Shown: positions 167-45,205 of the stretch, piece by piece
How positions within the stretch are numbered: the stretch's first letter is position 1
How the letters are laid out: each line of letters opens with the position of its first letter
Assembly (NCBI GenBank): GCA_016714165.1
Contig: JADJNU010000001.1
Coordinates: 1,411,536-1,475,535 of the forward strand
Length of the DNA stretch: 64,000 bases
Reading direction: 5' to 3'
Source of the DNA: Bdellovibrionales bacterium
GTDB lineage: Bacteria > Bdellovibrionota > Bdellovibrionia > Bdellovibrionales > UBA1609
The notes under the pieces: model-generated
The model's database searches: none
The model's input: the letters and a program-made list of their open reading frames with translations, nothing else
Told to the model about the DNA's origin: nothing
Made by a program: the position numbers and the translations under genes

Positions 167-1024
167 TCAACCACAGGCATCGAGACTGCCGGTTTTGTTA
201 CACAAAAGACTTTTTTTAATTTTGGAGCGGAATTTCTTCCATTCTTTTAGCTGACCTGCTGAGAAAGGCAAAGCAAAGCTGCGTGAATCGGCAGGAGTAT
301 CATCGAGCCACAAGTTTAGAATTTCCAATATTTGTCTGCGCAAAAATCCATAACCCGATTTTCTGACAACATTCAATACGAAGTGCTCAGGCTCAATCTT
401 CAAAAAGAAACTCACTATACCGACATAGTAGATTGACAAATGGTTGGCCAAATACCTCTGATGTTCATTGCCATCCATATAGCAAAAGACATACTTTTGA
501 TAGTTGTCCCGCCAATCATGAGGCTTCATTTTTATCAATATTGAAACAAATTCAATGAGCAACTCATAATCTGTCTTCAGTTGTGGATCCAATTGAACTT
601 TGATTTGGTTCGTTGCCAGCACACGCAAATCCTCCTTCGTGGTTCCCGTCGCCAAATCCTCTACCGCCGCATGGCGAATACTGGGGATGGGTCTCATTGC
701 GTAGGTTATCTTAGATACGTCTGGTACCAAGCCAAACCCCAGACCTGGAAGTCTGGAAGCTGCGAAATCCAGGTGAGACTGGTCACCTGGAAAAGTGCCT
801 GATCTGCCATAAATTTCGAAAATCTCGTTCTTACCAGTGACCAAAAGTTCTCCTGCTGATAGAACCTGTGCCCTTACGCCGTTAGGCAAGCGACGCAAGA
901 CTTCCTGCCAAAGTCCCTCGTGGGAACCAAAGTATCCATTCTGAAGATTTCCTTCGATCAATGAGTCTTTGAGATTGAACTCCGGAACAGTGAAGGCTCT
1001 GACCTGCCCTTCAATCTCAACCAA
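167..1024 (-). CDS. hypothetical protein (285 aa), no confidently recognisable domain
   Basis: Long ORF on minus strand; no signal peptide; no motif I can assign from memory; function unknown. Confidence 0.35.
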   Translation of the reverse strand: MVEIEGQVRAFTVPEFNLKDSLIEGNLQNGYFGSHEGLWQEVLRRLPNGVRAQVLSAGELLVTGKNEIFEIYGRSGTFPGDQSHLDFAASRLPGLGFGLVPDVSKITYAMRPIPSIRHAAVEDLATGTTKEDLRVLATNQIKVQLDPQLKTDYELLIEFVSILIKMKPHDWRDNYQKYVFCYMDGNEHQRYLANHLSIYYVGIVSFFLKIEPEHFVLNVVRKSGYGFLRRQILEILNLWLDDTPADSRSFALPFSAGQLKEWKKFRSKIKKSLLCNKTGSLDACG

Positions 1025-1443
1025 AATAAAGAGATGGCGACCGTAGCTAAGGTTCGGGTCTCCTTCAATGACGTATCGACCCCCAAAATCATGCGTAGAA
1101 GCGTTTGCAACAATGTCACCGAAAGAGCGATCTCTCTTCTCGATAGCCGAGGGAAAAGGGACACCTCCTCCCCCCTCTTATACTCGTCCGAATTTCGCCA
1201 GAAGAGGGAAACATCACAATTTTCCTACACCCAGCACTTGCCACGCCTAGGTCCCATAATCCCATCAGAAAGAAAAAAACAAATCTAAGCAAAGCTCGCT
1301 CCCAAGAAATCCAGCTAGCCAAAGTTTCAGCACCCGAATCAGATAAAGAAATCTTAATAAAATAACCCTTATTGGTGATTTATTAGCCCAAGTGCGTCAA
1401 AATGGGAAGAAAAATATGTGGGATCTCCGAAAAATGAAAACCC

Positions 1444-2952
1444 CTATTGCGGAATAACGAGCTCGCTCCCAATCATGATATTAGATCGATTGGACAGCTG
1501 GTTGGCCAGGGCAATTTTTGTGATATTCACACCATATTGACGGGCAATATTTGTGAGAGTTTCTCCACGACGAACAACATGCACGCGCCCCTTTTCAGCT
1601 TTTACGGCAATCTTTTGACCCACAAATACCACCCCTCGGCGGCTCAAATTATTCAATAGTTTCAAATTCTCAGTTGTCGTTCCGTACCTCTTGGCAACGA
1701 GATTCAGATTTTCACCCCGTTTCATCACGTGGTACTTGATGTCAGGGGTTAAAGAGTTGCTCTGGCCGCTCTTTTCCAAAGAAGCCGTATCGCGATGACT
1801 GAGGTAAACATCCGGCTCACGCTCGGGAACACGAATCCTCTGGCCAATGCGGAGAAGGCTTCGATTTGAAAAATCATTGAGACGACGAAGCGTTGCAACC
1901 GACGTGTGGTAGCGACGTGCTATAACAGAAAGAGAATCACCTCTTCGGATTCTATATCTGCCCGATTCTGAGGCAACAAATACAGGGGGAATCGAATCAC
2001 TCAGATCAATCGCCGCCAAAGCCTTTTCCCGTGACCCAATGGGAACTCTCAGGGTCACTGTACTGCCCGGCTCAACGGGTACGTAATAGGTACGAAACAT
2101 CGGATTCAATCGTTGAAGATCTTCATAGCTCGCTGACGACATCCCGCTTGCCAATTTTTGGAGACTTATGGGCTTCGTGATCTCAATTGTCTCGTATCCA
2201 AACTCGGCCTCATACGAAAGCTTGTGAAAACCATAATCCTCTGGATTTTTCGCAATGAGAGTGGCCGCGATAAATTTTGGCACGTAATTAGCTGTCTCGC
2301 GCGGCAGACGACGATTCTTGGAAAGCTCCCAAAAATCCCTTGTGTAGTGTCTCATCACAGCTCGCTTGACCCTGTTTTCTCCGGTGTTGTAAGAAGCAAG
2401 AGCGAGGTACCAATTTCCAAAAAGATTGTGAAGAGCTTTAAAATATCTACCCGCAGCCTGTGTTGAAAGAACGGGGTCCCGTCTTTCATCAACAAATGGG
2501 TCAATCCGCAATCCGTATATTTTACCGGTCTCTCGAATGAACTGCCAATACCCAACCGCTGCGGCATGGCTATTTGCTTTGTGACTAAACCCAGACTCAA
2601 TCAAAGAAACATAAACGAGATCGTCTGGCAAACCCTGGCTACGCAACTCCGCCTTCATCATGGGCAGATACCTTGAAGATCGCTCCAGATAGGTTTCCAT
2701 GTAGCGACGACCTCGACCCTGAAAATAATTAACCCATTTCTGAACCTGCTTATTTACTTCGATTGGAATATTCTCGACTTGAACAGGCGAGTCAGAAAGA
2801 TTGTCGTTTGCACCCTTGATAACGGCGAGAGATTCTGGACTTTCACTCTCTGCAGATGAACTGTCATTTTTTACTTGAGGGGATTGAAAATGACCACAAG
2901 CAGTCAGGCCCACCCATGCCACTAAGACAAGACCCGTACTGCATTTTCGCAT
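1444..2952 (-). CDS. mltD: membrane-bound lytic murein transglycosylase D-like lipoprotein (SLT catalytic domain + 3 C-terminal LysM repeats)
   Basis: Lipoprotein signal MRKCSTGLVLVAWVGLTAC; SLT motif LIESGFSHKANSHAAAVGYWQF; three LysM-like repeats (YRIRRGDSLSVIARRY..., HVMKRGENLNLVAKRY..., HVVRRGETLTNIARQY...); RBS AGGGAGG upstream of ATG at 2952. Confidence 0.8.
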   Translation of the reverse strand: MRKCSTGLVLVAWVGLTACGHFQSPQVKNDSSSAESESPESLAVIKGANDNLSDSPVQVENIPIEVNKQVQKWVNYFQGRGRRYMETYLERSSRYLPMMKAELRSQGLPDDLVYVSLIESGFSHKANSHAAAVGYWQFIRETGKIYGLRIDPFVDERRDPVLSTQAAGRYFKALHNLFGNWYLALASYNTGENRVKRAVMRHYTRDFWELSKNRRLPRETANYVPKFIAATLIAKNPEDYGFHKLSYEAEFGYETIEITKPISLQKLASGMSSASYEDLQRLNPMFRTYYVPVEPGSTVTLRVPIGSREKALAAIDLSDSIPPVFVASESGRYRIRRGDSLSVIARRYHTSVATLRRLNDFSNRSLLRIGQRIRVPEREPDVYLSHRDTASLEKSGQSNSLTPDIKYHVMKRGENLNLVAKRYGTTTENLKLLNNLSRRGVVFVGQKIAVKAEKGRVHVVRRGETLTNIARQYGVNITKIALANQLSNRSNIMIGSELVIPQ

Positions 2953-3096
2953 TCAGCCTCCCTTTAGTACCTCTGCACATGCATATGTATAAATTTAGCC
3001 CACCGGACTGAAAACCGCAACAAGACGTGGCGTCTTTGGGCCTAAGACGGAGGACCAAGGTCGCACTGTCTAACAAATTGACAGTTCCAGGTCAAC

Positions 3097-5040
3097 CTAT
3101 TGGATGGCTCCCTCCCAAATGGATTGAGATATTACGAGTTCGCGGGATTCTAACACTCGGTAGATCAAAAAATTGCGCATAACGGCCTTCACATAAAAAC
3201 TTGTCTCAATCCAAGGCAGTTCATCAATCCAAAGGTCATCGAAAGGGTCTGCAGATCCACGCAAACTCAACTTGGCTAAGTCTTCCCGAAAAGCCATCCA
3301 CTTTCTGAGGCGACCAATTCCAAGATTGTAACTGCCCAAGGCGAGCAGCAAATGTCCATCAAAGGCTCTGATCATTCTTCTCAAATAACTTGTCCCAAAC
3401 ATAATGTTCAATTCAGGAGAGAAGAGATCTTCTGGAAGCGAAAGCTTCTTTTTGTAATTGGTGTATTGGGCCGAATCTCGCGCGGTAATGGGCACAATTT
3501 GCATAAGTCCCACTGCGTTTGCAGGGCTCACAGCATCAGGGCGAAAAGAACTCTCCTGTTTGATCAACCCAAGAATCAAGGCCGAATCGAGTCCTTGTTT
3601 GGCAGCCATTTTCTTTACCAAAGATTGAAACTCGCGAGGAAAAGAAAGACCATAGAGCCCAGATCTCAAGAGCCCACGATCTTCCTCCCAGGCCTCATTC
3701 ATCAAGGAAATGGCCCCGAAATGATCGAATGCCAAAGACATGAGCCTTGCTCTTACAACTTTTTCCTCTGGAGACTGCGGTGCAGGCAATAACCCAAGTT
3801 CTGCTTGGGCTTCCTTAAACCATCCCGCCTGCAACAGAACTTGAAATCTTTCCCAAGCCTGATATTCGACTTCGCTAAGCCAGAGCTGAATCTTGACTGG
3901 TCCCTTCGAATCAGGTTCAAAGCTCAGACGGTTTTCGTTTGTTTCAATTTTGGTTCTCAACCCATAATAAGTTAAAGGGAAACGATCGATCAAGATCTTG
4001 GCTTCCTGCGTAGCGCGTTCAGAATTGAATTTTTGAAGAGATCGGTACAGCCAATAGCGAGCCTGTAGCTCCCATTGCTTCCCCTTCGGAAGAGCCAACA
4101 ACCGCTCAAACGAGGCCACGCCAGCCGGGTATTTTTGCTGACGAAGGTGGGTGAGACCCAGTCTGAAAAGGGCTTCAGCTGCGATATCTGTTCCGCCATG
4201 CTCCTGGATCAGTTTCTCGAAACTTTGTTCTGCTTTTTTATAATTACCCAAAAAAAAGGACGACTGGGCCAAAACGTAAAGAGGCGTCGCGGTTGACTTC
4301 CCCTTCATTTCGGACAGACTGGAGTCAGCAAGACGAAGACTTTCAAGGTAATAACCACGGCCAAAAAGATTTTTGGCCCATTCAGCCTGACGCCCACCAT
4401 CCACTTTGTCTAATTGATCAAGAATTCTTTCTTTCAAAAGTCGAAGCTTAGTATCCGAATTGGAAATTACACTCGTCAGAACCTCAATGATTTTATCACT
4501 GGCCCAATCAGACCTTCGCCCTCCGGGAAATTTCTTGATCAATTTCACACAGTCCTCTACGGCAGCAAGAAAATCACCACCGCTCAAAGCAACCCCTATC
4601 CTCTGCTGAAGCTCTGTCTCCTCTTGAGAAACTTCAACAGTGAGATCAGAATTAGTTGCCGGCCCCTGTTGAGCAACCGTGACTTTGCTATCAGATTTGG
4701 ATAAGACTCCCCGAAGGGATTCAATCCGTTGACGCATTTCTGGTTGCGGCAGAGCACGGTAACTTCTTCCAAAATAGTCGGCCGCTGCACTCAGATTTTG
4801 TTGAATAAACGCCAAATCTCCTGCTGACCGATAAAGTTGCGCCTGAGCTGCTTGATCAAGCCAAGACTTTTTCTGCATGATACGATCAATTGTATTCCAT
4901 GCCTGACGTCGGTTGGATTTAAGTTGCTTACCCAGAAGGTGCAGAAGTGCTTTGACATAAGCTTGCCGAAGCTCATTCACCTGAGGGCCCTGTAAAAACC
5001 AATCAGAGTTTTTATCTATTTTATCGACAATGGAGCTCAA
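3097..5040 (-). CDS. slt: soluble lytic murein transglycosylase (Slt70-like), main fragment: superhelical N-domain + C-terminal SLT domain; lacks its own signal peptide; starts at TTG in ORF track
   Basis: C-terminal SLT motif ILGLIKQESSFRPDAVSPANAVGLMQIVP ... GSYNLG; alpha-helical TPR-like N-terminal region; frame is continuous with upstream ORF 5021-5386 if A8 tract were A7. Confidence 0.75.
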   Translation of the reverse strand: MSSIVDKIDKNSDWFLQGPQVNELRQAYVKALLHLLGKQLKSNRRQAWNTIDRIMQKKSWLDQAAQAQLYRSAGDLAFIQQNLSAAADYFGRSYRALPQPEMRQRIESLRGVLSKSDSKVTVAQQGPATNSDLTVEVSQEETELQQRIGVALSGGDFLAAVEDCVKLIKKFPGGRRSDWASDKIIEVLTSVISNSDTKLRLLKERILDQLDKVDGGRQAEWAKNLFGRGYYLESLRLADSSLSEMKGKSTATPLYVLAQSSFFLGNYKKAEQSFEKLIQEHGGTDIAAEALFRLGLTHLRQQKYPAGVASFERLLALPKGKQWELQARYWLYRSLQKFNSERATQEAKILIDRFPLTYYGLRTKIETNENRLSFEPDSKGPVKIQLWLSEVEYQAWERFQVLLQAGWFKEAQAELGLLPAPQSPEEKVVRARLMSLAFDHFGAISLMNEAWEEDRGLLRSGLYGLSFPREFQSLVKKMAAKQGLDSALILGLIKQESSFRPDAVSPANAVGLMQIVPITARDSAQYTNYKKKLSLPEDLFSPELNIMFGTSYLRRMIRAFDGHLLLALGSYNLGIGRLRKWMAFREDLAKLSLRGSADPFDDLWIDELPWIETSFYVKAVMRNFLIYRVLESRELVISQSIWEGAIQ

Positions 5041-5386
5041 GGAAACAAGATGACCTTGATTTTTTTTCAGACAACTTCATGGCACAATTCAACTCTGTGA
5101 TCGCCAACCAGGCTCGCAATCCCTGAGCAATCTTGTCGAGTTTGGCAGCTGTTCCCAAGCACCTCTCAGCATTATTTTTTTTATCTTCCTGTCTCAAGGT
5201 TATCAACAGACGAGCAACTGATGCTCCCCCCTTTGGAACTGGAGAATCATCGTAGTTCCACCTTGAGGCCGGTAAATCAAAGTCACTTGTCAGTATCACC
5301 TGGCGAAGATTTACTTGGGCCTCGCACAAAGCAACCGTGCAGACTGCAAAAAAGGCAAGCGTCCTACGGAAGGATTTTAACATCAA
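5021..5386 (-). CDS. N-terminal signal-peptide-bearing fragment (121 aa) probably belonging to slt, separated by -1 frameshift in A8 tract (plus-strand T8 at 5057-5064)
   Basis: Signal peptide MMLKSFRRTLAFFAVCTVALCEA; ORF overlaps slt ORF by 20 nt in different frame; manual translation shows removal of one A in A8 run joins the frames; start ATG overlaps batD-like stop (ATGA). Confidence 0.45.
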   Translation of the reverse strand: MMLKSFRRTLAFFAVCTVALCEAQVNLRQVILTSDFDLPASRWNYDDSPVPKGGASVARLLITLRQEDKKNNAERCLGTAAKLDKIAQGLRAWLAITELNCAMKLSEKKSRSSCFLELHCR

Positions 5387-7296
5387 GCCTTACCTTTGTC
5401 GGATGCTGTTTCCTGAAGAGAAACAAGAGCAAGATCAAGAGTGTGGCTCAGAAGTTTATCTAATTCACTCACTGTCTTTCTGAGCTCTTTTTTATCCCTC
5501 AGCGATCCGGTCAATGCCTCTGGAGCAAATCCCAAGGCCTCTAGAGTATTCATGATCTTGCGGAGAGGAGCTTCCACCTCTCGGCGGACGCTTGGAGGGG
5601 CTTTCATGACAAGCTTTTCCAGTTCCTGATATCCTCCCCGCGATCCTGAAATTTCTCCCAAGATCAGATAAATGAGGTTGGTTCCTTCGACGCCAACTGA
5701 GCGCCAATCTCCCTTGTCCGCAAGCTTAGTGATGCGAAGAATCCTCTTCTTGTAAAGAGCACGCAAATCTCTGCCCTTTCGCCAAATACCAAATTGCATC
5801 ATTGTCCAGAACCCCAGGGCAATGAATATCGCCAGATAAACAACAGGCCAAAATATCAGAGGCTGAAAAGGAAAGCCTCCGCCGCTCGCTTCCCATCCCA
5901 AAGCCAGTTCAGGCATTCCACTACGAGCTTCCTTCTCTTTTTCCTTCGCCTCTTCCTTTGATTCTCTTGGAGCCGAAGCAATGGTCTGATCGCCACTGCT
6001 CGGTGTTACGGTTAACAGAATCTCAGAAGTCCCCTTTTTGTAAAACTGCCCGGTATTGGGATCGAAAAGACTAAAGCTAAGAGCAGGTATGGTAACTGAT
6101 CCTGCCTCCCGCGGGATCAATAAGACTTCAAATTCTTTATAACTCTGTCCGTTTTTAAAAAATTTTGATTCACTCTTTGTATCGTAAACTTCAATTGAAG
6201 AGGGAAGACCCAGCTTTGGCAGATCAATCAGCTTCGCATTGCCGCGACCATCAAACCTAACCTTCAATGTTACGGGTTGGTTAGCAGCAACCGTCTGCTC
6301 TGAAATCCCTCCCGTCACTTCAAATTGCCCGACAGCGCCCGTGTAATCAGCCGGTCGGCCCTCTGAGGGTACGGGTAAGACTTGAATTTCCACAGGTTTG
6401 CTGGCCTTCGTGTAAACATATTGACGACCAAATCCAAAGGTGGAGTCTGCCATGACTGAGCATTTTGCTTTGTATGGATCTATAACCGCTTTTCCTTGCT
6501 TGATAGGAAATAGGGCATAAGACACAAGCAAAGCCTTCTTATAAACCAAGCCATTGATCACCTCATCTTGCCACTCGAGGCGGGTCGCCAGATCAATCTC
6601 TTCTTTCCAAAATCCATTGAGAGATGGATATTGAAGCGTGTCGATATCACGGATCAGGCTACGCGTGTAAAGATACCACGAGGCAGTCACTTGCTGTCCC
6701 TCATAGACCTTCTTATTATCCACATCGACTTGAATAAAAAATGCTTCATCTGGGTTAATCGGTTGCGACTTGAATCCCGGCATCCGCCTGCGCAGCAATT
6801 GAGAGAATAGCTCGTCGGCATCATCTAAGGGATCAACGGGCTGCCCCGGAGGCGTTTGAGCCTTTGGCCGAGTGGGAACAGAACCCGCCTTCTTCACATC
6901 AATATCCAGAGACTTGGTTCTGTAGGAATTTCCATTCACAACGACCTCAACAGGATCGATTCGTTGTTTTCCCGTCGAATTGGGGGCTAGCATATAATTG
7001 AAAATCCGAGACTGTTGAACCTGAAACTGTCCATTGGCGTACGTGCTACTTGTCTCCGATGATGACCAGGAATTAATAAGATCAAGATTTTTAAAACTTG
7101 GCAGTCGGGGCTCCTCAACCGTTACGCTTCCCTTGCTCGATACCGAAATCATCAGGGTGAATGTATCCCCTTCCTCCATTGACTCTCGATCCACGGAGGC
7201 TGTGACGCTGACTCCTTCAGACGCGACTGCCCGAGCAAAATTCAACCCCGCCACAGCGAAGACAAACAGCAACCAGAATTTACCAATCTTTGCCAT
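5383..7296 (-). CDS. BatD-like (oxygen-tolerance family) protein: signal peptide, large extracytoplasmic domain, single C-terminal TM helix and cytoplasmic tail
   Basis: N-terminal signal MAKIGKFWLLFVFAVAGLNFARA; C-terminal TM FPFQPLIFWPVVYLAIFIALGFWTMMQF; position as last gene of MoxR/vWA/TPR operon matches Bat operon order. Confidence 0.6.
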   Translation of the reverse strand: MAKIGKFWLLFVFAVAGLNFARAVASEGVSVTASVDRESMEEGDTFTLMISVSSKGSVTVEEPRLPSFKNLDLINSWSSSETSSTYANGQFQVQQSRIFNYMLAPNSTGKQRIDPVEVVVNGNSYRTKSLDIDVKKAGSVPTRPKAQTPPGQPVDPLDDADELFSQLLRRRMPGFKSQPINPDEAFFIQVDVDNKKVYEGQQVTASWYLYTRSLIRDIDTLQYPSLNGFWKEEIDLATRLEWQDEVINGLVYKKALLVSYALFPIKQGKAVIDPYKAKCSVMADSTFGFGRQYVYTKASKPVEIQVLPVPSEGRPADYTGAVGQFEVTGGISEQTVAANQPVTLKVRFDGRGNAKLIDLPKLGLPSSIEVYDTKSESKFFKNGQSYKEFEVLLIPREAGSVTIPALSFSLFDPNTGQFYKKGTSEILLTVTPSSGDQTIASAPRESKEEAKEKEKEARSGMPELALGWEASGGGFPFQPLIFWPVVYLAIFIALGFWTMMQFGIWRKGRDLRALYKKRILRITKLADKGDWRSVGVEGTNLIYLILGEISGSRGGYQELEKLVMKAPPSVRREVEAPLRKIMNTLEALGFAPEALTGSLRDKKELRKTVSELDKLLSHTLDLALVSLQETASDKGKA

Positions 7297-8023
7297 TCGG
7301 TGCCTCCTTTAATCCCTGTTCATTTTCTTCTGCACGAATTTTCTGCTCCTGATTTTTCAACTCTTCTAAAATAGCTTGAATTTGTTCCTTTGTTAAAGAC
7401 CCTCCGCCAAGTTTCTGTTTTGTGGGCTTAGAGTTCTGATACTCTTGGTCCTCGCTCTGATCTCGCTTGTCTTTGCCTTTGTCTTTGTCTTTGTCTTTGT
7501 CTTTGCCTTGTCCCTCGCCCTTTTCTTTTCCGTTTGGATCTTCTTTTTGATCCTTCCCTTCTCCCTTTCCCTTGCCTTGGCCTTCTCCTTGCCAGAGCAG
7601 CTCTATATTTGTTTTTACTTCGACAGAATCGGGGCGAAGCTCCAGGGCATTTTGGTAGTTCTGAAGAGCCGCCTCAATCTGACCCTCTTGGGCCAAGGCA
7701 ACGGCAGCATTAAAAAAACCGTAAAATTGCAATTCAGGATTCCTTTCAGCCAAACGAACCACCGTACCAAAAGCCTTCACTGCTTTTTCAGGTTCCTTAT
7801 TGAGTAAAAAAGCCAAGCCCAAATTGAGTTGAACGTACAAATTAAATGGATCCTCAGCAAGAGCCGCCACAAAACTCTTGTAAGCCGGATAGCTATTTTC
7901 CTGTTTAAGACTAGCGACCCCCTGATTGTTGAGCTCGATGGCCTTCACGCTTAAATTTCTGGCAATGACCGCCGTTGCCGCCAAACACAAACAAAGAATG
8001 AATCCAACAACTAGACCTCTCAT
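7280..8023 (-). CDS. TPR-repeat protein with K/D/E/G low-complexity segment (BatC-like)
   Basis: Signal/TM N-terminus; TPR-like helices (AIELNNQGVASLKQENSYPAYKSFVAALAEDPFN...); low-complexity GEGQGKGKGEGKD...KDKDKDKDKGKDK encoded by (CTTTGT)n microsatellite; start overlaps upstream vWA gene stop. Confidence 0.6.
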   Translation of the reverse strand: MRGLVVGFILCLCLAATAVIARNLSVKAIELNNQGVASLKQENSYPAYKSFVAALAEDPFNLYVQLNLGLAFLLNKEPEKAVKAFGTVVRLAERNPELQFYGFFNAAVALAQEGQIEAALQNYQNALELRPDSVEVKTNIELLWQGEGQGKGKGEGKDQKEDPNGKEKGEGQGKDKDKDKDKGKDKRDQSEDQEYQNSKPTKQKLGGGSLTKEQIQAILEELKNQEQKIRAEENEQGLKEAPNGKDW

Positions 8024-9090
8024 TGTTCAGCGACCTCGAATCGCCCTTTCCAAATCCGGCCCGAGCGACGGCGTTCGCTGATTGCCAATTCGATCAGCAA
8101 GAAAATTAATCCTGCGACAAGGAATCCCTGGTATTTCTCATCGTAATTTGTCACAATCGCAGAACCAAACTGCGACTTTTCAAGTTTCTGTATATCCTCA
8201 TACAAAGCCCGGGGGGCGTTTCCTCCAAATGTGGCGTGATAAAAACTTCCCTTCCCTTCGCGGGCCAGCTCCTTCAAGGGTGTTCCTTTCGTTTGTGTGA
8301 GTATCACCTTTCCACTTTGATCCTTGCGATATCCACGAAGATTTCCAAATTCATCTCGCAGAGGAATTGGACCCCCCTTTTCTGTTCCCACTCCCAAAGA
8401 AAATATTCGGATGCCTTCATCAGCCAATTCCTTTGCTACTTTCAGAGCTCCTGGCTCTTGATCCTCGCCATCCGAAACAATCAGAATAGCTCGAGTCACC
8501 GATGAATCCTCATCTGCTTCAATTCCCCCGCGACGAAAAGCATCCTTTGCTTCTCTAAGAGCCTTGGCAAACTCAGTGCCTTGAGTTGAGACCGATTTAG
8601 GAGAAAGAGATTCAACAAACATCTTTATCGCCGACAAATCGGTGCTCACGGGAGATAGCACCACCGCCGAGCTCGCAAAAGCTATCAATCCGACGCGATC
8701 TCCGGACATCAGATCGAGAAGACGTCCCACCTCTTTCTTAGCCAATTCTAAACGGCTTGGTTTCACGTCCTCAGATTCCATGCTGTTGGACACATCAAAA
8801 AGAATGACGATCTCAATGCCCTCGCTTTTTACTTTCTGTCGTGACTGCCCAGCTTGGGGACGCGCCAACGCAAAGATAAAACAACCAATGGCAGAGAGCT
8901 CTAAAACGAGTTTCCAGCGACGCCGCAGGGTCGATACACTCGAGGTGAGAAAAGGGGCCAGTTTTGAACCCAGAGCCTTGGCTATTTTTCTGGTCTGAGC
9001 TCGAGTTAAGTAAATAGAAAAAACAAAAAATACCGGCAAAAGCCAGAGCAGTTGCAGAGCTGCGGGGTCAGCAAAACGATATTCGCTCAT
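8020..9090 (-). CDS. von Willebrand factor A domain membrane protein (BatB-like)
   Basis: N-terminal TM helices; vWA MIDAS-like DVSNSM motif; translationally coupled to neighbours. Confidence 0.75.
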   Translation of the reverse strand: MSEYRFADPAALQLLWLLPVFFVFSIYLTRAQTRKIAKALGSKLAPFLTSSVSTLRRRWKLVLELSAIGCFIFALARPQAGQSRQKVKSEGIEIVILFDVSNSMESEDVKPSRLELAKKEVGRLLDLMSGDRVGLIAFASSAVVLSPVSTDLSAIKMFVESLSPKSVSTQGTEFAKALREAKDAFRRGGIEADEDSSVTRAILIVSDGEDQEPGALKVAKELADEGIRIFSLGVGTEKGGPIPLRDEFGNLRGYRKDQSGKVILTQTKGTPLKELAREGKGSFYHATFGGNAPRALYEDIQKLEKSQFGSAIVTNYDEKYQGFLVAGLIFLLIELAISERRRSGRIWKGRFEVAEQ

Positions 9091-10094
9091 CAGGGCCCCC
9101 TTCTCAAAACAGTTCTACCTAAAAAGGAAGAAACAATGAGCAGCACCAAGCCCGCCTCTAAGTAGGGTGGATACAATTCTGAATATCTTGTGAACTCATT
9201 GACCTCAACTTTGGTTTTTTCCAATCGATCAATATCCTTAAATACATTCTCGAGAGCCTGACCATCAATAGCTCGATAATATTTTCCGCCAGTCTCCGAA
9301 GCCATTCGACCCAGGAGTTCATCATTAACGGCACTGTGTATGGGACGATAGCGTTTAACCTTTCCTCCCCTGCCATCATCAAGGTACACAGGCAACTGGG
9401 CCTGTCCGTCCCGACCCATCCCAATGCTGTAGGTCTTAATACCCAAGTCCCGGGCCAATTCAATTGCTGTCTGAGGATCAATTGTTCCGCTGTTATTTTC
9501 TCCATCTGTTAAAAATATAACAACTCGAGATTTTGCCGTGGAGTCCTTCAATCGGCCTACCGCATTGGCCAAGCCCACCCCGATGGCAGTTCCCATCTTG
9601 ATGTTGCGCGAAGTCTGGACCTGCGCCAGATTATTCATGAGGAGAGGGTAGTCGAGTGTCATGGGCACCCGAGTGTAGGATTCCCCAGAAAACACAATCA
9701 GCCCAATGCGATCTGAAATCCGCCCTTTGATAAAATCATGGATCACTTTCTTCGAGGACTCCAAACGATTTTCCGGCTGCATGTCCTCTATCAGCATACT
9801 ATCTGAAATATCTAGAACGATCATGATATCAATGCTCTCAACATTTCTCTTCATTTTTGTGTCACTCCTTTGAGGACGCGCCAATGCGACAACCACAAAG
9901 AGAAGACCAAACAGTTTCAGAACAGATGGAATGCCGACGAGCCGAGCCCGAAGTGTACCTCCAGCAGCCTTAAGAATTTTGATCGAGCTGAATTGGACTG
10001 ACGGCCTCTGCCTCTTGCGCATGAACCATCTCCAAATAAAAATCAAAATTAGCGGAGCAAGAAAGCCAAAGGCCCAAGGAGATGCCCACGTCAC
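9090..10094 (-). CDS. von Willebrand factor A domain membrane protein (BatA-like)
   Basis: Two N-terminal TM helices; vWA motif LDISDSM ... FLTDGENN; stop/start overlap with flanking genes. Confidence 0.75.
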   Translation of the reverse strand: MTWASPWAFGFLAPLILIFIWRWFMRKRQRPSVQFSSIKILKAAGGTLRARLVGIPSVLKLFGLLFVVVALARPQRSDTKMKRNVESIDIMIVLDISDSMLIEDMQPENRLESSKKVIHDFIKGRISDRIGLIVFSGESYTRVPMTLDYPLLMNNLAQVQTSRNIKMGTAIGVGLANAVGRLKDSTAKSRVVIFLTDGENNSGTIDPQTAIELARDLGIKTYSIGMGRDGQAQLPVYLDDGRGGKVKRYRPIHSAVNDELLGRMASETGGKYYRAIDGQALENVFKDIDRLEKTKVEVNEFTRYSELYPPYLEAGLVLLIVSSFLGRTVLRRGP

Positions 10095-11008
10095 TTCGAA
10101 CCCCTTCCCGCCAATTGGTGCTCGATTCGGTCCGCCACCTGTCGAGTCATTTCCATCAATTGTTCCGCATCCACTCGCGAGACGGTGGTCGCCGATTTCG
10201 TCTTTCTCAATTCATTGAAGAGTCGACGCAAATCAGAGGCTGTTGTTTTATAAACCTGCTTGTAACGATACTTAATTTCGTTCATCACCGCCCGATCGCC
10301 CCACTCAAGAGCCGGCACCAGAAGTCGTCTCACCAGATAGAGTCGAAAAAGCTGATCCAAATCATACACAAAACTGTTTAAACTATCCGCTTGGTCCGGG
10401 CGCAGTTTTCGCAGCAGACCCCGTATCCCTTTATTCATTTCATTGAATGGAGAAAGAGCCGTCTTGTTGGTGGCTAGCTTTTCAAGCAAGCGTTTACGGG
10501 AGTAATATCGACGGCTCTGCCGCCAAATGAAGCCAAGAACAATTAAACCAAGCAGTACCCATACACCGTACAACCAAGGCGGATAGCCCATTTGAAAGGG
10601 TCCAAAAGGTGGCACCATCTGAGCCTGTGTTTTTCCTTCTAAAACAGATTTCACTTGCCACTCAATTTTGCTCATTTTCACTGTGTTTGTGCCATCAGAG
10701 AGAACAAGATCATCTCCCACATAATTTCCAGGTTTATATCCTGTTACCACCATTTGAATTTGATCGGGAGACTGAGTGACTACTTTCAAAGGGTAGAGGG
10801 AGTATTGCTGCTCTTGTTTACTAAATCGAATACTCGGTTGAGCTTTCCATTCGCCGACGGGCTCCCCACGACACGTGAGCAGGTACTTGCTTCCAACTGT
10901 AAAGGAGTCTAGCTTTGCCGCCCCCGCTTGAGAGGCCTCTTCAAGATTGCAATTCCAGATCGGAGCGTTTGCACTGTCAGAAGCCAAACTTTCCGGATTT
11001 GAATTCAC
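10091..11008 (-). CDS. hypothetical single-pass membrane protein of the MoxR/vWA operon
   Basis: ORF translationally coupled on both sides (4-nt overlaps); central TM helix LYGVWVLLGLIVLGFIW; no recognisable catalytic motif. Confidence 0.5.
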   Translation of the reverse strand: MNSNPESLASDSANAPIWNCNLEEASQAGAAKLDSFTVGSKYLLTCRGEPVGEWKAQPSIRFSKQEQQYSLYPLKVVTQSPDQIQMVVTGYKPGNYVGDDLVLSDGTNTVKMSKIEWQVKSVLEGKTQAQMVPPFGPFQMGYPPWLYGVWVLLGLIVLGFIWRQSRRYYSRKRLLEKLATNKTALSPFNEMNKGIRGLLRKLRPDQADSLNSFVYDLDQLFRLYLVRRLLVPALEWGDRAVMNEIKYRYKQVYKTTASDLRRLFNELRKTKSATTVSRVDAEQLMEMTRQVADRIEHQLAGRGSK

Positions 11009-11880
11009 CGTCGACTCCTTCTTTTGAAGAAGGCGATCAAGGGTTCGACAATATCCTCACCCGCTTTTAAATCAATCCGATCCACCTGGGCCCTCTTCAA
11101 AGCCAATTCCCGACTGCTTGTCTTTTCTTTTGAGGACTCCAAAAAAGCTTTCCGAAACGCAGGAGATGAGGTGTCCACGGTATAGATCTCACCAGATTCT
11201 GCGTCATGAAAATCAATGATTCCCATAGCTGGGATCTCCCTCTCAGCCGGATCCTGCACCACGGCTGCAACCGTGTCATGCTTGCGCCCCAACATTCGCA
11301 GAGGACCATCAAATCCTTCATCCATAAAATCGCTAAAGATAAAAATATGCGACTTCTTTTTTAGGACCCCTTGTAAAAACTCGAGAGCCACTTTGAGTCC
11401 TGTCCCCTGAGATTTGGGTTTAAAATAATACAAATCACTCATGATGCGATGAATGTGTCCCCGTCCTTTTTTAGGCGGAACATAGTGCTCCACCTGATCG
11501 CTAAACAAAAGCAAACCCACTGGGTCCTTGTTTTTGGCGGCAGAAAAACTGAGCAAGGCCGCCAAATGCGTCACGATTTCGCCCTTGAAATACTCCTTTG
11601 ATCCAAAATTAACAGAACCGCTCACATCAACTGCCAACATGACTGTCATCTCACGCTCTTCATCAAATTTCTTGATAAAGGGCTTTCCCGCCCGCGCGGT
11701 GACGGGCCAGGAGATCGCGCGAACATCATCGCCCGGGACGTATTCGCGAAATTCTGAAAAAGTCATCCCCTGCCCACGAAAAGCAGAATGATATTCTCCG
11801 GCGAACAGATTATTCACGAGACGCCGTGTGCTCAGTTCAAGCAACTTCACTTTTTTAAGTATCTCTGGAGGTAAACTCAA
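11005..11880 (-). CDS. DUF58 family protein (vWA-like MoxR partner)
   Basis: Typical DUF58 N-terminus LSTRRLVNNLFAGEYHSAFRGQGMTFSEFREYVPGDDVRAISWP and MIDAS-like VDVSGS; immediately downstream of MoxR ATPase. Confidence 0.8.
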   Translation of the reverse strand: MSLPPEILKKVKLLELSTRRLVNNLFAGEYHSAFRGQGMTFSEFREYVPGDDVRAISWPVTARAGKPFIKKFDEEREMTVMLAVDVSGSVNFGSKEYFKGEIVTHLAALLSFSAAKNKDPVGLLLFSDQVEHYVPPKKGRGHIHRIMSDLYYFKPKSQGTGLKVALEFLQGVLKKKSHIFIFSDFMDEGFDGPLRMLGRKHDTVAAVVQDPAEREIPAMGIIDFHDAESGEIYTVDTSSPAFRKAFLESSKEKTSSRELALKRAQVDRIDLKAGEDIVEPLIAFFKRRSRR

Positions 11881-11881
11881 A

Positions 11882-12871
11882 CTAGGGCACCTCGATATGA
11901 CTGAGCAGCTCCTTAATGATCTCTTCGGAACCGACTTCTTCGGCCTCAGCTTCGTAGGTTAAAATCAGTCGGTGGCGCAAAACATTGTAAGCAACGGCCT
12001 TAATGTCTTCAACTGTCACAAAGCCACGCCCCCTCAGAAACGCATGGGCTCTGCCGGCACGAGCCAAATTGATTGTCGCTCGCGGAGAAGCGCCTACCGC
12101 CAATAAGCTCTGAATGTGACCCAAACCATAATCGCTCGGGCTGCGAGTTGCCATGACCAATTCCACAATATAATTTTTCAATTTTTCGTCGACGTAAATG
12201 GAGTCAATTCTCTCTTTGGCTCTCATCAATTCTTCTCTTCCGATTACCGACTCAATCTGTGGTGAATGATCTGTCGACATTCTATCCAGAATCAAGGCCT
12301 CTTCTTCTTTTTTTGGATAGGTCACAATTACTTTGAACATAAATCGATCGAGTTGGGCTTCGGGCAGCGGATAAGTTCCTTCTTGTTCCAATGGATTTTG
12401 AGTTGCCAGAACCAGAAAAGGTCGCGCCAAAGGGTAGGTTTCGTCTCCAATCGTCACCTGCTTCTCAGCCATGGCTTCAAGCAGGGCACTCTGAACTTTC
12501 GCTGGAGCCCGATTGATTTCATCGGCCAAAACGATATTGGTAAAAATAGGTCCCTTTTTCGGCATAAACTCATTGGTCTTCATATTGAAAATCATCGTTC
12601 CAATGAGATCTGTAGGCAAAAGGTCGGGGGTGAATTGTATTCTTTGAAATTGCAAGGAAGTGGCTCGACCGATCGAGGAAATAACCAAGGTTTTTGCCAA
12701 GCCTGGCACACCCTCCAGCAAAACATGGCCTCCAGTTAAAAGACCCATAATTATGCTCTCGACCATTTCTCTCTGACCGACAATGATCTTGCCTACCTCG
12801 ACGATAACTTTCTCGACAAATTTGCTTTCTTGTTTGATCGCTTCGTTTAGCGCCAGTATGTCCACTTGCAC
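11882..12871 (-). CDS. MoxR-family AAA+ ATPase
   Basis: Walker A GVPGLAKT, Walker [11 protein letters not shown], typical MoxR length 329 aa. Confidence 0.9.
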
Positions 12872-13129
12872 GGCGTGTCTCCTCTCCGCTGACCGACCAA
12901 AAATGTATCCCGTCCACGAAAAAGCGAAATATTCTCATGGCATGGGGCTCCCATTCTCACAGGATGATCACGGAGTGACAAGAAATTCTTGAAGTTTCTC
13001 ATTGGGCGAACAGGATTTTCGCTATACACTTGCCATGAAGCAAATCAGTTGCCAGTTCGATTCTACTTGGCAATATTAGAACAATCCACGCAAGACGAGG
13101 AGCCAGAATGGGACCTCACTTCCTGAGAG

Positions 13130-14005
13130 ATGTGGGCAGACCTTAGAGGCGGGAAAATAGAAATGAATGGATCGACCAAAACATGGTTTTTGCTCTCAGT
13201 GGTTTCGATATCTGTGATCTCAGCCTTTCATTCCTGGGCTGGCAGGCAAGGCCTGCTGTGGGGCGTTATCATCTCGCTCAGCGTAAATTGCCTGATCTAC
13301 TTCTACAATGAGGTCCACCTTGGAAATGTCTTTCTGGGACAGTTGATCGAAGGTCAGAACCCTTGGGGTCTTTTAGACACTGTTCAAAAACTCGCAAAGA
13401 CGGCCAGAATTCCCGTTCCAAAAGTGGTGGTGCTTGCCTCTCTTTCCCCTCAAGCCGTGGTGATGGGGCGAAGCTGGAATTCCGCTACTCTCTATTTGAC
13501 TGAGGGCCTCCTCCGAACTCTCTCGGCTGATGAGAGAGAGGCGGTAATTGCCTACCAGATTTCTTGTATTAAAAAAATGGATACTCTTATCTTTACTTTT
13601 GCTTCTGCGATAGTAGGCGTGATTTTCACCTGCTCAAGAATAATCGATTTTTTGCTCCGTGGAATAATGGGGGCCAAAGCCGATCCAAATTCTCGACAGA
13701 ATCACCTTTGCAGTTGGCTCTTCGCGCCCATAGCCACTGCAATTGTGAAAATTTCAATCGGTTCGAGTCGGTATCTCACCAATGATGCCATAGCAGCTTC
13801 CTGGCTCAAAGATCCAAAGGCCCTCGCCCAAGCTCTCTGGAAACTGGATTCTTATGCCTCTACAATGCCCTTGGCCGTTCCCCCCTCTACGGCGCCTCTC
13901 TTTGTGGTCAACCCCTTGACTGGACGTGGTTGGACTCGTTACTTTCATGTCCATCCAAGCGTTGAAAAACGAATTAGAAATATCATCGGATACTATCCAA
14001 TTTAG
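13130..14005 (+). CDS. HtpX (peptidase M48)-like membrane protein with degenerate active site (predicted inactive pseudoprotease)
   Basis: Aligns by eye to E. coli HtpX: ...SADEREAVIAYQISCIKKMD vs ...[20 protein letters not shown] (HExxH replaced by YQxxC); third ligand region RYLTND vs REFHAD; C-terminal HVHPSVEKRIRNI vs THPPLDKRIEAL; N-terminal TM helices; alternative start at 13163. Confidence 0.65.
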   Translation: MWADLRGGKIEMNGSTKTWFLLSVVSISVISAFHSWAGRQGLLWGVIISLSVNCLIYFYNEVHLGNVFLGQLIEGQNPWGLLDTVQKLAKTARIPVPKVVVLASLSPQAVVMGRSWNSATLYLTEGLLRTLSADEREAVIAYQISCIKKMDTLIFTFASAIVGVIFTCSRIIDFLLRGIMGAKADPNSRQNHLCSWLFAPIATAIVKISIGSSRYLTNDAIAASWLKDPKALAQALWKLDSYASTMPLAVPPSTAPLFVVNPLTGRGWTRYFHVHPSVEKRIRNIIGYYPI

Positions 14006-14028
14006 TTTTCCGAGACGAATGAGATTTT

Positions 14029-14064
14029 AAAAATAGAAAAATAGAAAAATAGAAATATAGAAAG
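14029..14064. repeat. tandem 9-mer array approx (AAAATAGAA)x4 in promoter/5' region of DUF1844-like gene
   Basis: Direct reading: aaaaatagaaaaatagaaaaatagaaatatagaaa. Confidence 0.8.
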
Positions 14065-14070
14065 GGGAAT

Positions 14071-14346
14071 ATGGGCACAGAAATCAAACAAGACAACGCC
14101 AAGGGTTTGAAGGCGGACTTTTCAACTCTCATTCTTTCCATTGCCTCTTCTGCGGCCATGGCAATGGGTCTCACACCAGACCCCGCAGGGAATAAAACAG
14201 AAAAGAATCTTGAAATGGCCAGTTTTAATATTGACCTGCTCATCCTTCTCCAACAGAAGACAAAAAACAACCTGGATGCTGAAGAATCCCGCTTTCTTGA
14301 ATCACTGATTCGTGATCTTCAGGTGAAATTTATACAAATTAAATAG
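14071..14346 (+). CDS. small conserved protein, DUF1844-like (assignment from memory of family consensus)
   Basis: FSTLILSIASSAAMAMGLTPDP...IDLLILLQQKTKNNLDAEESRFLESLIRDLQ resembles DUF1844 consensus as I recall it; RBS AAGGGGA upstream. Confidence 0.45.
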   Translation: MGTEIKQDNAKGLKADFSTLILSIASSAAMAMGLTPDPAGNKTEKNLEMASFNIDLLILLQQKTKNNLDAEESRFLESLIRDLQVKFIQIK

Positions 14347-14507
14347 AGAAAATTATCACAGTGTTCCCATCTTGACGACAACGAATGTCGGCATCAAACT
14401 GCCGGTACGTGTGAAGGAAATCCATCGATATGGTGGTCTGGCGTAGCGGTTGCTTTCGCGAGGGTTTCATTGCGTGTTTGAGAAACGACCATTGGGAGGT
14501 AGTTAGT

Positions 14508-15980
14508 ATGCGTAGGACAAAGCAGAGATGGCTGATCATGGGAGCAATTTTTTTTGGCTTGTCATTGGCAGGGCTGATGGTCGGGTACTTGCCGACAGGA
14601 AATGCACAGCTTCCTAAATCACCGATTAGAGCCGGAGACCCCTTACCCGCCAATCTATTTATTGAACTCAATAAAGTGATCAATCCAACTGTCGTTAACA
14701 TTTCTACCAGTCAAACTCCCCGTCAGACGGGAAGAAGAATGCCAGGATACCCAGATCCTTTTTTTGATCTCTTCCAGCAATTCATGGGCCCCGGCCCCTT
14801 TTATCAAGAACAACAGCCGCGCCAGTCCCTGGGAACAGGATTTGTCATTCGCGAAGACGGCTTGATCCTTACCAATAACCACGTCGTCGACAAAGCTGAT
14901 GTCATCAAAGTCCAGCTCAACGAAAATGATAAGGAAACATACGATGCAAAAGTGATTGGAAAAGATGCCAGTACTGATGTTGCCTTGATCAAAATTGAAG
15001 CTAAAAAGAAACTTCCGGCTGCAAAATTAGGTTCAAGTGCAGATCTTCAGGTGGGTGAGTGGGTTGCCGCTTTTGGAAATCCTTTTGGACATGGGCACAC
15101 AATCACCAAAGGCATTATCTCAGCCTTGGGACGAGAGATTGATGAGCTCAATCGATTTCCCTTTTTGCAGACAGACGCCAGCATCAATCCGGGTAATTCT
15201 GGTGGACCTCTGGTGAATTCCCTTGGGTTCGTGGTTGGAGTTAATACAGCTATAGACGCGCGTGCACAAGGGATAGGTTTTGCTATTCCAATTGACGATG
15301 TAAAATCCATTGTCTCCGTTCTTGAAAAAGATGGAAGTATCAAACGCGGCTTTCTTGGCGTCCTTATGCAAGATCTGGATAAGGAGTCAGCGAATTCTAT
15401 CGGAATTGATCGGACCGACGGAGCTCTGTTGACTCAAATTATCCCCGAAAGCCCCGCACAAAAGGGAGGCCTTAAGCCTTACGACTTAGTCATTCAGATA
15501 AATGGAAAGAAAGTATCCAGTACACGCGATTTAAGTCGGAGCGTTTTGGGACTCAAGGCGGGAGACAAAGTCGAAGTGACTGTGGTTCGCGATAAGAAGG
15601 AAAAAAAGCTCCAAGTGACGATCGGCAAACATCCTGACGAGACAGATGAGGATCAGTTGGGCCAATCGATGAAGCGCTACAACGGTCAGAAGGCGCCCTT
15701 TGATTTGGGATTTAGAGTTGGTGATTACTCGAGGGAACTCGCCGCCGAACTTGGACTCCCCCTGCTCAGCGAACCTCGTCCCATCATTCTCGATGTGGAA
15801 AGAAACTCACTGGCCGCTGTATCGGGCTTGGCACCCGGGGACATCATCCTTGACGTGAATCGTCAGGAAGTGATCAAGGCTCGCGATGTACTGAAGACGC
15901 TCCGAAAAGACGGCATCAACGTCTTGCGGGTGCTGAAACAAAACCGAGTGGTATTGATTTATTTGAAGTCTCAGAAGTAA
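14508..15980 (+). CDS. htrA: HtrA/DegP/DegQ-family periplasmic serine endoprotease (trypsin domain + 2 PDZ)
   Basis: Catalytic triad context HVV...D...GNSGGPL; two PDZ-like regions; signal/TM MRRTKQRWLIMGAIFFGLSLAGL; start chosen at ATG 14508 after GGGAGG RBS rather than ORF-track 14430. Confidence 0.9.
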   Translation: MRRTKQRWLIMGAIFFGLSLAGLMVGYLPTGNAQLPKSPIRAGDPLPANLFIELNKVINPTVVNISTSQTPRQTGRRMPGYPDPFFDLFQQFMGPGPFYQEQQPRQSLGTGFVIREDGLILTNNHVVDKADVIKVQLNENDKETYDAKVIGKDASTDVALIKIEAKKKLPAAKLGSSADLQVGEWVAAFGNPFGHGHTITKGIISALGREIDELNRFPFLQTDASINPGNSGGPLVNSLGFVVGVNTAIDARAQGIGFAIPIDDVKSIVSVLEKDGSIKRGFLGVLMQDLDKESANSIGIDRTDGALLTQIIPESPAQKGGLKPYDLVIQINGKKVSSTRDLSRSVLGLKAGDKVEVTVVRDKKEKKLQVTIGKHPDETDEDQLGQSMKRYNGQKAPFDLGFRVGDYSRELAAELGLPLLSEPRPIILDVERNSLAAVSGLAPGDIILDVNRQEVIKARDVLKTLRKDGINVLRVLKQNRVVLIYLKSQK

Positions 15981-16013
15981 GAGAGAATTATGAAGAAGTA
16001 AGAAGCTCGTGCA

Positions 16014-16074
16014 GTCAGAGTACAGTACCGGCAGTACCGGCAGTACCGGCAGTCCCACTGTGCTCTGACTTTTT
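16014..16074 (+). terminator. putative rho-independent terminator downstream of htrA; stem GTCAGAGTACAG/CTGTGCTCTGAC with large loop made of (CAGTACCGG)x3 then T5
   Basis: Inverted repeat with one mismatch followed by TTTTT at 16070-16074. Confidence 0.45.
16023..16056. repeat. tandem 9-mer (CAGTACCGG)x3 plus partial
   Basis: Direct reading cagtaccggcagtaccggcagtaccggcagtccc. Confidence 0.85.
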
Positions 16075-16303
16075 CGGCACCGCGACGACTCCGCGCGTTT
16101 TTCATTCCAAAGGCCGGCCGAGGTCCTAAGCTAGGTCCTAAATTGAGACATTCCCCAACTATTTTGGCCTGCTCAAGACTTTTGTCTTAAGTCTTTTGTT
16201 TGGTCTGCCGTAACTGTATGTAATGGGGAGTGCGTTGAAAAACTTGCTCCCCCTTTGACGCGTCTCAAGAGATGCATAAGAGACCCACACTGGGAAGGAG
16301 CAG

Positions 16304-16609
16304 ATGATGAAAATCACCGATGTTAAGGTATTCCCCGTTAACGAAGAACGCCTCAAAGCCTACGTCACTATCACCATCGACGATTGTTTTGTTGTTCGAG
16401 ACCTGAAAGTCATCAAGGGAAATGATGGCCTCTTTGTAGCCATGCCCAGCAAGCGGCGCAAAGACGGACAATTTAAAGACATTGCCCATCCACTCAATCA
16501 GGAAACCAGAAACGAAATCGAGAAGGCCATTTTTGATGAATTCGAGAGAGAAATTCGATCACTGGGCAGCAGCCTCGATGATTTGAACCAAGAAGACCAC
16601 GAAGAATAG
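16304..16609 (+). CDS. spoVG: SpoVG family protein
   Basis: MMKITDVKVFPVNEERLKAYVTITIDDCFVVRDLKVIKGNDGLFVAMPSKRRKDGQFKDIAHPLN matches SpoVG family consensus. Confidence 0.85.
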   Translation: MMKITDVKVFPVNEERLKAYVTITIDDCFVVRDLKVIKGNDGLFVAMPSKRRKDGQFKDIAHPLNQETRNEIEKAIFDEFEREIRSLGSSLDDLNQEDHEE

Positions 16610-16698
16610 TCCTCGAATTCTGACCATATCTATTGGTTTTACCTTGATTTCCCGGCCTTTCTTGATACCTTACTGGGCTCAGTTTTCCCATTATCGAT

Positions 16699-16773
16699 TG
16701 GGGTGTCGCCAAGTGGTAAGGCATCGGATTTTGATTCCGACATTCGCAGGTTCGATCCCTGCCACCCCATCCA
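16699..16773 (+). tRNA. tRNA-Gln (anticodon UUG)
   Basis: Manual cloverleaf: acceptor TGGGGTG/CACCCCA, anticodon stem TCGGA/TCCGA with loop TTTTGAT (anticodon TTG), T-arm GCAGG TTCGATC CCTGC, discriminator T then encoded CCA. Confidence 0.8.
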
Positions 16774-20297: not shown

Positions 20298-20394
20298 CGC
20301 TTTGTGCGGGTTTTTTTGTGCCTTCGATTAGATTTCATTGACTTTTTATTGGGCAAACCTGCAACTTGAAATTTGCAATAGGTGGGATTACTCG

Positions 20395-21780: not shown

Positions 21781-22252
21781 TGGCCCGAGTTTTCATTGAG
21801 GCACACATTTGAGAGGCGTCCCTGAAGCTCACCACGAATCTCCGCCACAATTAGATACTTGGATGGCTCTCTCAAAATCAACTCTTGTGTCCCAATTCGG
21901 CCCGCCTCTCTATTTGAAAGTTCAAATCAATCAGAAAAATTTGCTCTTGTATCCAATTTGATAAAGGACATTCTTAAATCGCCCCCGCTTTTGTCCGATA
22001 AGAACACAATGGTACTTGAACCACTCCCCCATGGCTATTGAACTCTCTTGGATTGCAGGCGGAGGCCTGACCTCAACCTATCTTATCAACTACCAAGTGG
22101 GGACAATTGCTCCCACTCATTGGGGTTCGGGTGATCTGGTCGACCGATAAAGAAATTGAGCCCAACTTATTGAAACTCGCTTAACATTTAGAAAGAACTA
22201 TACAAAATACTTTGAACACGGCTAGGTTAGCCACATCAATTCATTGATTTTT

Positions 22253-23839: not shown

Positions 23840-23982
23840 AGAGATTATTAAATCCCCTCACCCGATAGAAGATCAAGGCCTAAAATGTACAGGGTTTTAC
23901 CCAACAAGCAGATAAAACCATATTGACCCATAACTGCAAAGCCCGCGTTAGTCCACGCAAAGACCAAGGATTTCCAAAACCC

Positions 23983-45202: not shown

Positions 45203-45205
45203 AAT

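Follow-up and report, generated by a model that had tools for sequence, protein, structure and literature searches.

The region analyzed here (the window) is a 64-kb stretch of a Bdellovibrionales MAG, in which one slt-like gene on the minus strand is represented by two overlapping open reading frames that were deposited as separate genes. The downstream fragment (3097..5040, minus strand; MBK7843298.1, "transglycosylase SLT domain-containing protein") encodes 647 aa from a TTG start and was recovered by protein search as a 100% identity match (P0003). The upstream fragment (5021..5383, minus strand) corresponds by exact look-up to MBK7843299.1, a 120-aa "hypothetical protein IPJ71_06315"; the ORF list gives it as 121 aa from a TTG (5386..5021, minus strand), and in our own translation the ATG at 5383 yields 120 aa. 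According to the ORF list, the two frames overlap by 20 nt. Three-frame translation places the downstream ORF in the +1 frame relative to the upstream one, and this translation together with the open-frame limits leaves 5024..5076 (minus strand) as the sole interval in which both frames are open; thus, any shift joining them must fall inside it. The interval includes a run of eight A's (5060..5067, minus strand; T8 on the plus strand) that carries an extra base, as judged from DNA alignments. Removal of one A from this run merges the two frames into one ORF that starts at the ATG at 5383 and spans 761 codons, with a junction that reads ...AMKLSEKNQGHLVSLSSIVDK... and a fused protein that carries ...MKLSEKNQGHLVSL... 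across it. The whole gene after this repair (3097..5383, minus strand; 761 codons plus stop) is colinear with two database proteins, P0001 and P0002, and also with slt in the related genomes L138 and L140.

A sequence-only reading of the same DNA had proposed that one Slt70-like transglycosylase gene is broken by a one-base change in an A8 run, and the colinearity of the repaired ORF with intact 761-aa orthologues bears this out. It had also described the 647-aa ORF as starting at TTG and lacking a signal peptide, in agreement with the hydrophilic N-terminus of our translation (MSSIVDKIDKN... / MSSIVDKIDKNSDW). Several of its details needed correction. The run had been located at 5057-5064, three bases off its actual position. 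A signal peptide had been assigned to a 121-aa upstream ORF; the signal peptide is retained (as predicted by inspection) and the length is not, as the TTG start gives way to the ATG at 5383. Likewise, the fusion into one secreted protein is upheld and its size of ~765 aa becomes 761 aa from the ATG. Finally, the lesion had been called a -1 frameshift, which is right in that a single base is changed and loose in its sign: the window has one base too many, and a ribosome would need a +1 shift. The split gene is a single-base insertion (+1 nt) in the window, and "-1" fits the repair, not the lesion.

The repaired gene opens with an ATG (5383-5381) and a predicted Sec signal peptide (5318..5383, minus strand), read from the sequence as MLKSFRRTLAFFAVCTVALCEA followed by Q. 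Inspection of the start of the upstream ORF (MMLKSFRRTLAFFAVCTVALCEA followed by QVNL) suggests a basic n-region followed by a hydrophobic core and a cleavage site of small residues (CEA/Q), and the aligned orthologues have the same start Met and comparably hydrophobic N-termini. Across 20 family sequences C75, W92, and C100 are invariant, all of them within the first ~110 residues and hence within the 120-aa fragment; the two invariant cysteines would fit an exported protein. The 120-aa "hypothetical protein" is thus a conserved part of the slt-like family. Further along, the putative N-terminal superhelical region contains TPR-like helical repeats (approximately 4087..4290, minus strand; Pfam TPR_2/6/16/12 at residues 365-432), and the C-terminal part contains an SLT catalytic domain (PF01464; 3280..3621, minus strand; Pfam E = 5.2e-29, residues 589-702 of the repaired protein). 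The catalytic motifs of the window protein are QESSF...GLMQI...SYNLG, with the catalytic Glu (E610) of the QESSF motif encoded at 3553-3555 (minus strand), and the residues Q609/E610/S611, G625/M627/Q628, and Y685/N686/G688 are invariant in the same 20 sequences.

A profile of the family matched Pseudomonas aeruginosa Slt (5OHU) at 1e-40 and Escherichia coli Slt70 (1QSA) at 1e-33, the latter over Slt70 residues 322-608 (linker and catalytic domains, with the L domain included). In the Pfam search of the repaired protein, SLT_L (PF14718) gave no match and TPR families matched instead, and the NCBIfam Slt equivalog (NF008631, PRK11619) was not reached, with 75.5 bits against a cut-off of 536. 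Since the score lies far below the equivalog cut-off and the N-terminus is clade-specific, the repaired protein, Slt70-like in architecture and presumably in mechanism, is a Bdellovibrionales-specific relative and not an orthologue of E. coli Slt70.

The slt-like gene closes an operon that encodes a MoxR ATPase, a DUF58 protein, a 305-aa protein, BatA, BatB, a TPR protein, and BatD. Its ATG shares one base with the stop codon of batD (TGATG), and in 42 of 132 distant loci BatD is encoded just upstream, on the same strand. A LysM/SLT (MltD-like) gene follows slt, and the gene order is kept in close relatives.

Comparison with orthologous slt genes, a check suggested by the sequence-only reading, returned single ORFs of ~760 aa that start at the same Met and align across the junction. 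In the protein search, the fused protein matched P0001 (761 aa) at 96% identity with 100% of the query covered (E = 0) and P0002 (761 aa) at 90% identity, again over 100% of the query. Further matches comprised proteins of 759-762 aa at 51-57% identity and many of ~750 aa at 31-40%. The alignments at 96, 90, and 51-57% identity pass straight over the junction, and full-length matches at E = 0 imply that the fused reading is not a product of chance. MBK7843299.1 and MBK7843298.1 would therefore be pieces of one 761-aa putative secreted enzyme. The repaired gene, at 2286 nt, has exactly the slt length found in L001, L004, L138, and L140, and has no other defect. To a wider range of relatives, scans of one-genome-per-species and metagenome collections added 132 distant Bdellovibrionales loci, among them that of cultured Bdellovibrio bacteriovorus. 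None of the 132 had matches in more than one frame, and of the 116 not cut at the 5' end, 110 had an open frame of at least 700 codons (median 766 codons). Overall, slt is conserved as one ORF throughout the Bdellovibrionales. One locus, L026, was considered as a naturally frameshifted orthologue and rejected, as its break coincides with a masked run of N and is uninformative. Protein search, exact-product look-up of P0003, and genome and metagenome scans turned up no second, independent assembly of this strain: the protein search returned nothing above 96% identity besides the deposited fragment, the look-up gave no contig, a metagenome scan with the protein gave no match, and the alignment-based scans of genomes and metagenomes recovered only orthologues whose identity was 27-55%, or no higher than 43% when measured over the full length.

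At the run itself, DNA alignments show GAAAAAAAAT in the window (wider context CTGAAAAAAAATCAAGG). The closest relative, L001 (94% nucleotide identity), has an interrupted run, GATAAAAAT (wider context CTGATAAAAATCAAG), while L138, L139, and L140 share GAAAAAAAC, an A7 (wider context CTGAAAAAAACCAAG), and L004 has GAAAAAAAAC, an A8 that is in frame and encodes Lys-Lys (wider context CTGAAAAAAAACAAGG). On this pattern, the lineage of the window would be expected to read GAA AAA AAT (Glu-Lys-Asn), so that one A is in excess (A7 to A8). The slt branch leading to the window has 35 synonymous and 10 non-synonymous substitutions, compared with 31 and 11 on the intact L001 branch. There is no sign of relaxed selection on slt, the ratio on its branch being indistinguishable from that of L001.

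To place the insertion in its context, syntenic DNA was aligned to the window from L004 (ENA), L138 and L141 (a 1.69-Mb JGI contig), L139, L142, and L143 (Logan assemblies of public runs), and L140 (the sister MAG JADJVA, from the same Nanopore project). The comparable stretches (167-16623, 20326-21857, 22152-35926, and 37719-49491) amount to 43.5 kb and ~37 genes. Within them, all intragenic indels are multiples of three with three exceptions, each a single-base homopolymer change: the A7 to A8 in the slt-like gene (5060-5067, minus strand), a G5 to G6 at 1170-1175 that splits a lipoprotein-like gene into 1322..1116 and 1024..167, and a C5 to C4 at 31119-31122 that cuts a 127-aa response regulator to 80 aa. 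Removing one G at 1170-1175 gives ...SIRGGGGVPFPSAIEK..., which matches an intact database protein (P0065, 93% identity, ...SIRGGGGIPFPSAIEK...), and inserting one base at 31119-31122 makes the response regulator fully colinear with L141 and L142. The sister MAG L140 has a private frameshift of its own, a G6 to G7 in the lipoprotein gene relative to L138 and L139; these two are 100% identical to each other and L140 is ~99% identical to both. No coding frameshift was found when L004, L138, and L139 were compared with each other (L004 and L139 are Illumina-derived, L138 is the JGI contig). In total, four frameshifts occur in ~65 kb of Nanopore MAG sequence versus none in ~67 kb of sequence from relatives, a difference that is marginal by a rough estimate (p about 0.06).

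Some further candidates did not qualify. A fourth apparent split, with overlapping open frames at 45418-46185 and 43547-45304, was rejected because the subtilase starts with a Met and signal peptide of its own (MALPALKWGLRGLFVLVFAVWGMATSFA) and the two are separate genes in L143. The indels near 38402, 40659, and 20371/21784, whose lengths are likewise no multiples of three, were set aside as lying upstream or downstream of coding regions or in variable N-termini. An ISL3 transposase was likewise rejected as an assembly error, as it combines an in-frame stop with a frameshift away from any long homopolymer, and we treated it as genuine decay. The window assembly is not riddled with errors: ~45 other runs (A/T of at least 7 or G/C of at least 6) sit within intact ORFs. 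The breakage of ~8% of genes, each at a short homopolymer, is the signature of residual Nanopore error, not of gene decay.

The source MAG is EsbW_18-Q3-R4-48_MAXAC.295 (JADJNU000000000; GTDB Bdellovibrionales, family UBA1609), with a coverage of 7.55x by Illumina and 12.78x by Nanopore (Singleton et al., 2021, PMC8012365, Supplementary Data 3). Its reads were generated on PromethION R9.4.1 and basecalled with Guppy 2.2.3, and were assembled with CANU 1.8 followed by Racon on the Nanopore reads, medaka 0.6.5 (two rounds), and one more Racon round, this time with the Illumina reads (Singleton et al., 2021, PMC8012365). Frameshifting homopolymer indels are a known failure mode of such Nanopore assemblies (PMC9262707).

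Taken together, we consider it likely that the split of slt is a residual homopolymer consensus error and that the cells carry A7 and an intact secreted Slt-like enzyme. Sequencing error had been among the causes named by the sequence-only reading, and it gains from the source being a low-coverage R9.4.1 MAG with two more homopolymer frameshifts in the same window. It is also favored because the orthologues are intact with an A7 or an interrupted run and the repair restores exactly 2286 nt, because the sister Nanopore MAG L140 has its own private homopolymer frameshift, and because the 35:10 substitution ratio is the same as on the intact L001 branch. Against it, the ~45 other long runs lie in intact ORFs, homopolymers are also preferred sites of real indel mutation, Illumina polishing might have confirmed the A8, and the frameshift contrast with the relatives is only marginal. 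The additional A, the intact state of the orthologues, the way the MAG was sequenced, and the nearby homopolymer frameshifts are observations; that the reads, and hence the cells, have seven A's is what we infer from them. The organism would then have one intact gene, last in a bat-type operon, for a 761-aa periplasmic Slt70-like lytic transglycosylase. Its parts would be a Sec signal peptide, a conserved N-terminal region that includes both invariant cysteines, a TPR-like superhelix, and, at the C-terminus, the SLT domain and its catalytic Glu. The low-coverage Nanopore R9.4.1 consensus would have called seven A's as eight, and the single Illumina polishing round at 7.6x would have left the extra A uncorrected.

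The alternatives all take the A8 as real. A very recent A7 to A8 replication-slippage mutation could have inactivated slt in this strain, leaving the cell with a 120-aa secreted stub and a probably useless cytoplasmic 647-aa fragment. The sequence-only reading had listed recent pseudogenisation as well. Indels arise preferentially in homopolymers, the assembly had been polished with Illumina reads and most long runs of the window are in frame, and the decayed ISL3 transposase with its in-frame stop shows that some real decay is present. The second lytic transglycosylase directly downstream (LysM/SLT, 1444-2952) could compensate for the loss, and the lack of any other lesion in the gene is consistent with a recent origin. 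However, that same lack of a second lesion, along with the absence of a non-synonymous excess on the window branch, also speaks against inactivation, as does the conservation of the gene as one ORF throughout the Bdellovibrionales. Moreover, 3 of ~37 genes broken at short homopolymers is far above the expectation for pseudogenes in a 4.2-Mb genome of free-living type, the lesion pattern fits the error profile of the platform, and the sister Nanopore MAG has the same type of lesion elsewhere. We thus regard a real mutation as unlikely. Phase variation, which the sequence-only reading had also raised, would make the A run a contingency tract: by slipped-strand mispairing, an enzyme that remodels the cell wall or a prey wall would be on in cells with A7 and off in those with A8. 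This proposal has no support, as the relatives are all in frame and do not maintain the tract (they have GATAAAAAT, an A7, or an in-frame A8 and differ by substitution and not by length), even though the run is long enough for low-frequency slippage, the product is an envelope enzyme, and the polymorphic rate of the MAG (0.02) may indicate strain heterogeneity. An A8 is short for an A/T contingency tract, and the other two frameshifts of the window, in unrelated genes at G/C runs of 4-6, argue for a technical cause; phase variation is in our view very unlikely.

Programmed recoding would instead have the cell read through the A8, by a +1 ribosomal slip of tRNA-Lys or by transcriptional slippage, to make the full-length protein along with a short secreted product. 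Poly-A tracts are a cause of both polymerase and ribosome slippage, and on G AAA AAA AAT, tRNA-Lys could slip by +1 from AAA to AAA and so produce exactly the orthologous ...SEKNQGH.... Yet A8 gives only low slippage in the systems studied, and programmed sites are conserved together with their frameshift, whereas a shift is unnecessary in all of the ~9 close orthologues and in the 132 distant ones, which makes recoding extremely unlikely. A real A8 in a population of A7 and A8 alleles would mean that this uncultured UBA1609 bacterium turns a conserved periplasmic transglycosylase, linked to the bat operon, on and off by slippage, or alternatively rescues it at a low level by a +1 slip on the Lys codons; we give this reading very little credence. 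What had been flagged here, a transglycosylase split by a frameshift or subject to phase variation, is most likely no real feature of this organism; the gene behind it is ordinary and well conserved, and its enzyme class is known.

On the preferred reading of a consensus error, the biological importance of the locus is small and its value is practical, namely the correction of two database entries and a caution on the MAG collection. On that reading, at least two further genes of this 64-kb stretch are misannotated through the same kind of error. Those who mine this MAG set for pseudogenes, phase variation, secretomes, or "novel small proteins" should reckon with breaks at short homopolymers in roughly 8% of the genes of low-coverage bins. 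Were the A8 real, the locus would gain some mild interest, as a cell-wall enzyme that is conserved in the Bdellovibrionales would then have been newly lost or be subject to switching.

Compared with known systems, the locus resembles the phase-variable genes of Neisseria, Haemophilus, and Campylobacter in that a homopolymer in the 5' part of an envelope-protein gene sets the reading frame by its length. Unlike in those genes, the tract in the window is short, of the A/T type, and unconserved, with no length polymorphism among relatives and no out-of-frame orthologue. The likeness to Nanopore R9.4.1 homopolymer consensus errors is closer: a one-base error in homopolymer length makes one gene be called as two, coverage of the MAG is low and its short-read polishing was limited to one round, and there are several lesions per ~40 kb, none of them present in short-read assemblies of relatives. 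As compared here from assemblies alone, nothing sets such artefacts and the slt lesion apart. The protein itself resembles Slt70 and Slt (family 1A; 1QSA, 5OHU) in being predicted to be periplasmic, in a putative alpha-helical superhelix that would make up its long N-terminal part, and in an SLT domain (PF01464; goose-lysozyme-like) at the C-terminus with the ES, GLMQ, and YN.G motifs. Unlike Slt70, it is about 120-140 residues longer, its N-terminal region scores as TPR and not as SLT_L (PF14718), and its first ~110 residues are clade-specific, with two invariant cysteines.

The lipoprotein-like hypothetical gene at 167-1322 (minus strand), which carries the lipobox LGVASAGC, is broken by one surplus G in a G-run at 1170-1175 (G6 in place of G5) into ORFs of 68 and 285 aa, the latter deposited in GenBank as MBK7843296.1. 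An unbroken gene of 372-374 aa is found at two syntenic loci of relatives (L004 and L138) and in P0065, an intact protein 93% identical to the repaired product. The same gene is also affected in L140, the locus of a sister Nanopore MAG from the same project as the window: a private G6 to G7 insertion at L140 position 16198 (JADJVA010000020.1), not shared by L138 and L139 (~99% identical), leaves a called product of 315 aa instead of 372. A single-domain response regulator of 127 aa (30889-31272, plus strand) is cut down to 80 aa by the absence of one C from a C-run (C5 to C4, 31119-31122) and is whole in the related loci L141 and L142. The gene for a secreted subtilase with S8 and PA domains has an A7G9 tract (45206-45221, minus strand) directly 5' of its ATG, in the ribosome-binding region; this tract is 2 bases shorter in the related locus L143. 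This length difference could be a further Nanopore error or reflect a naturally variable spacer.

Synteny between the window and its relatives stops at an ISL3-family transposase (16941-18142, minus strand) that adjoins tRNA-Gln (16699-16773). An in-frame stop at 17546-17548 and a frameshift near 17250-17300, where there is no long homopolymer, split the transposase into three ORFs. This looks like a truly decayed insertion sequence next to a tRNA gene. Tandem repeats also differ in length from those of relatives. In the intergenic region flanked by the genes for DUF1844 and the M48 peptidase, a TATTTTTC-type repeat (14032-14056) is 24-25 nt longer than in L004, L138 and L140, and at the 3' end of a 297-aa ORF (38664-39557) in-frame growth has added 36 nt of a GGxCCAATGGT-type repeat (~38628-38664).

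In the repaired Slt-like protein, C75, W92 and C100 (residues 75-100, window 5084-5161, minus strand) are invariant across 20 family members sharing 31-96% identity, and Pfam gave no match in the N-terminal ~110 residues that hold them. This region may be a clade-specific module stabilized by a disulfide.

On the minus strand, a bat-type operon (5383-12871) encoding MoxR, DUF58, a 305-aa protein, BatA, BatB, TPR and BatD proteins runs into slt without a gap, with stop and start overlapping by 1 nt, and slt is followed by the gene for an MltD-like LysM transglycosylase (both within 1444-5383). Within the operon, the BatC-like TPR gene (7280-8023) has gained 24-30 nt of in-frame GACAAA (Lys-Asp) repeats relative to relatives (~7465-7495). 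Of 132 more distant Bdellovibrionales loci, 42 have BatD upstream of their slt orthologue at a distance of no more than 600 nt.
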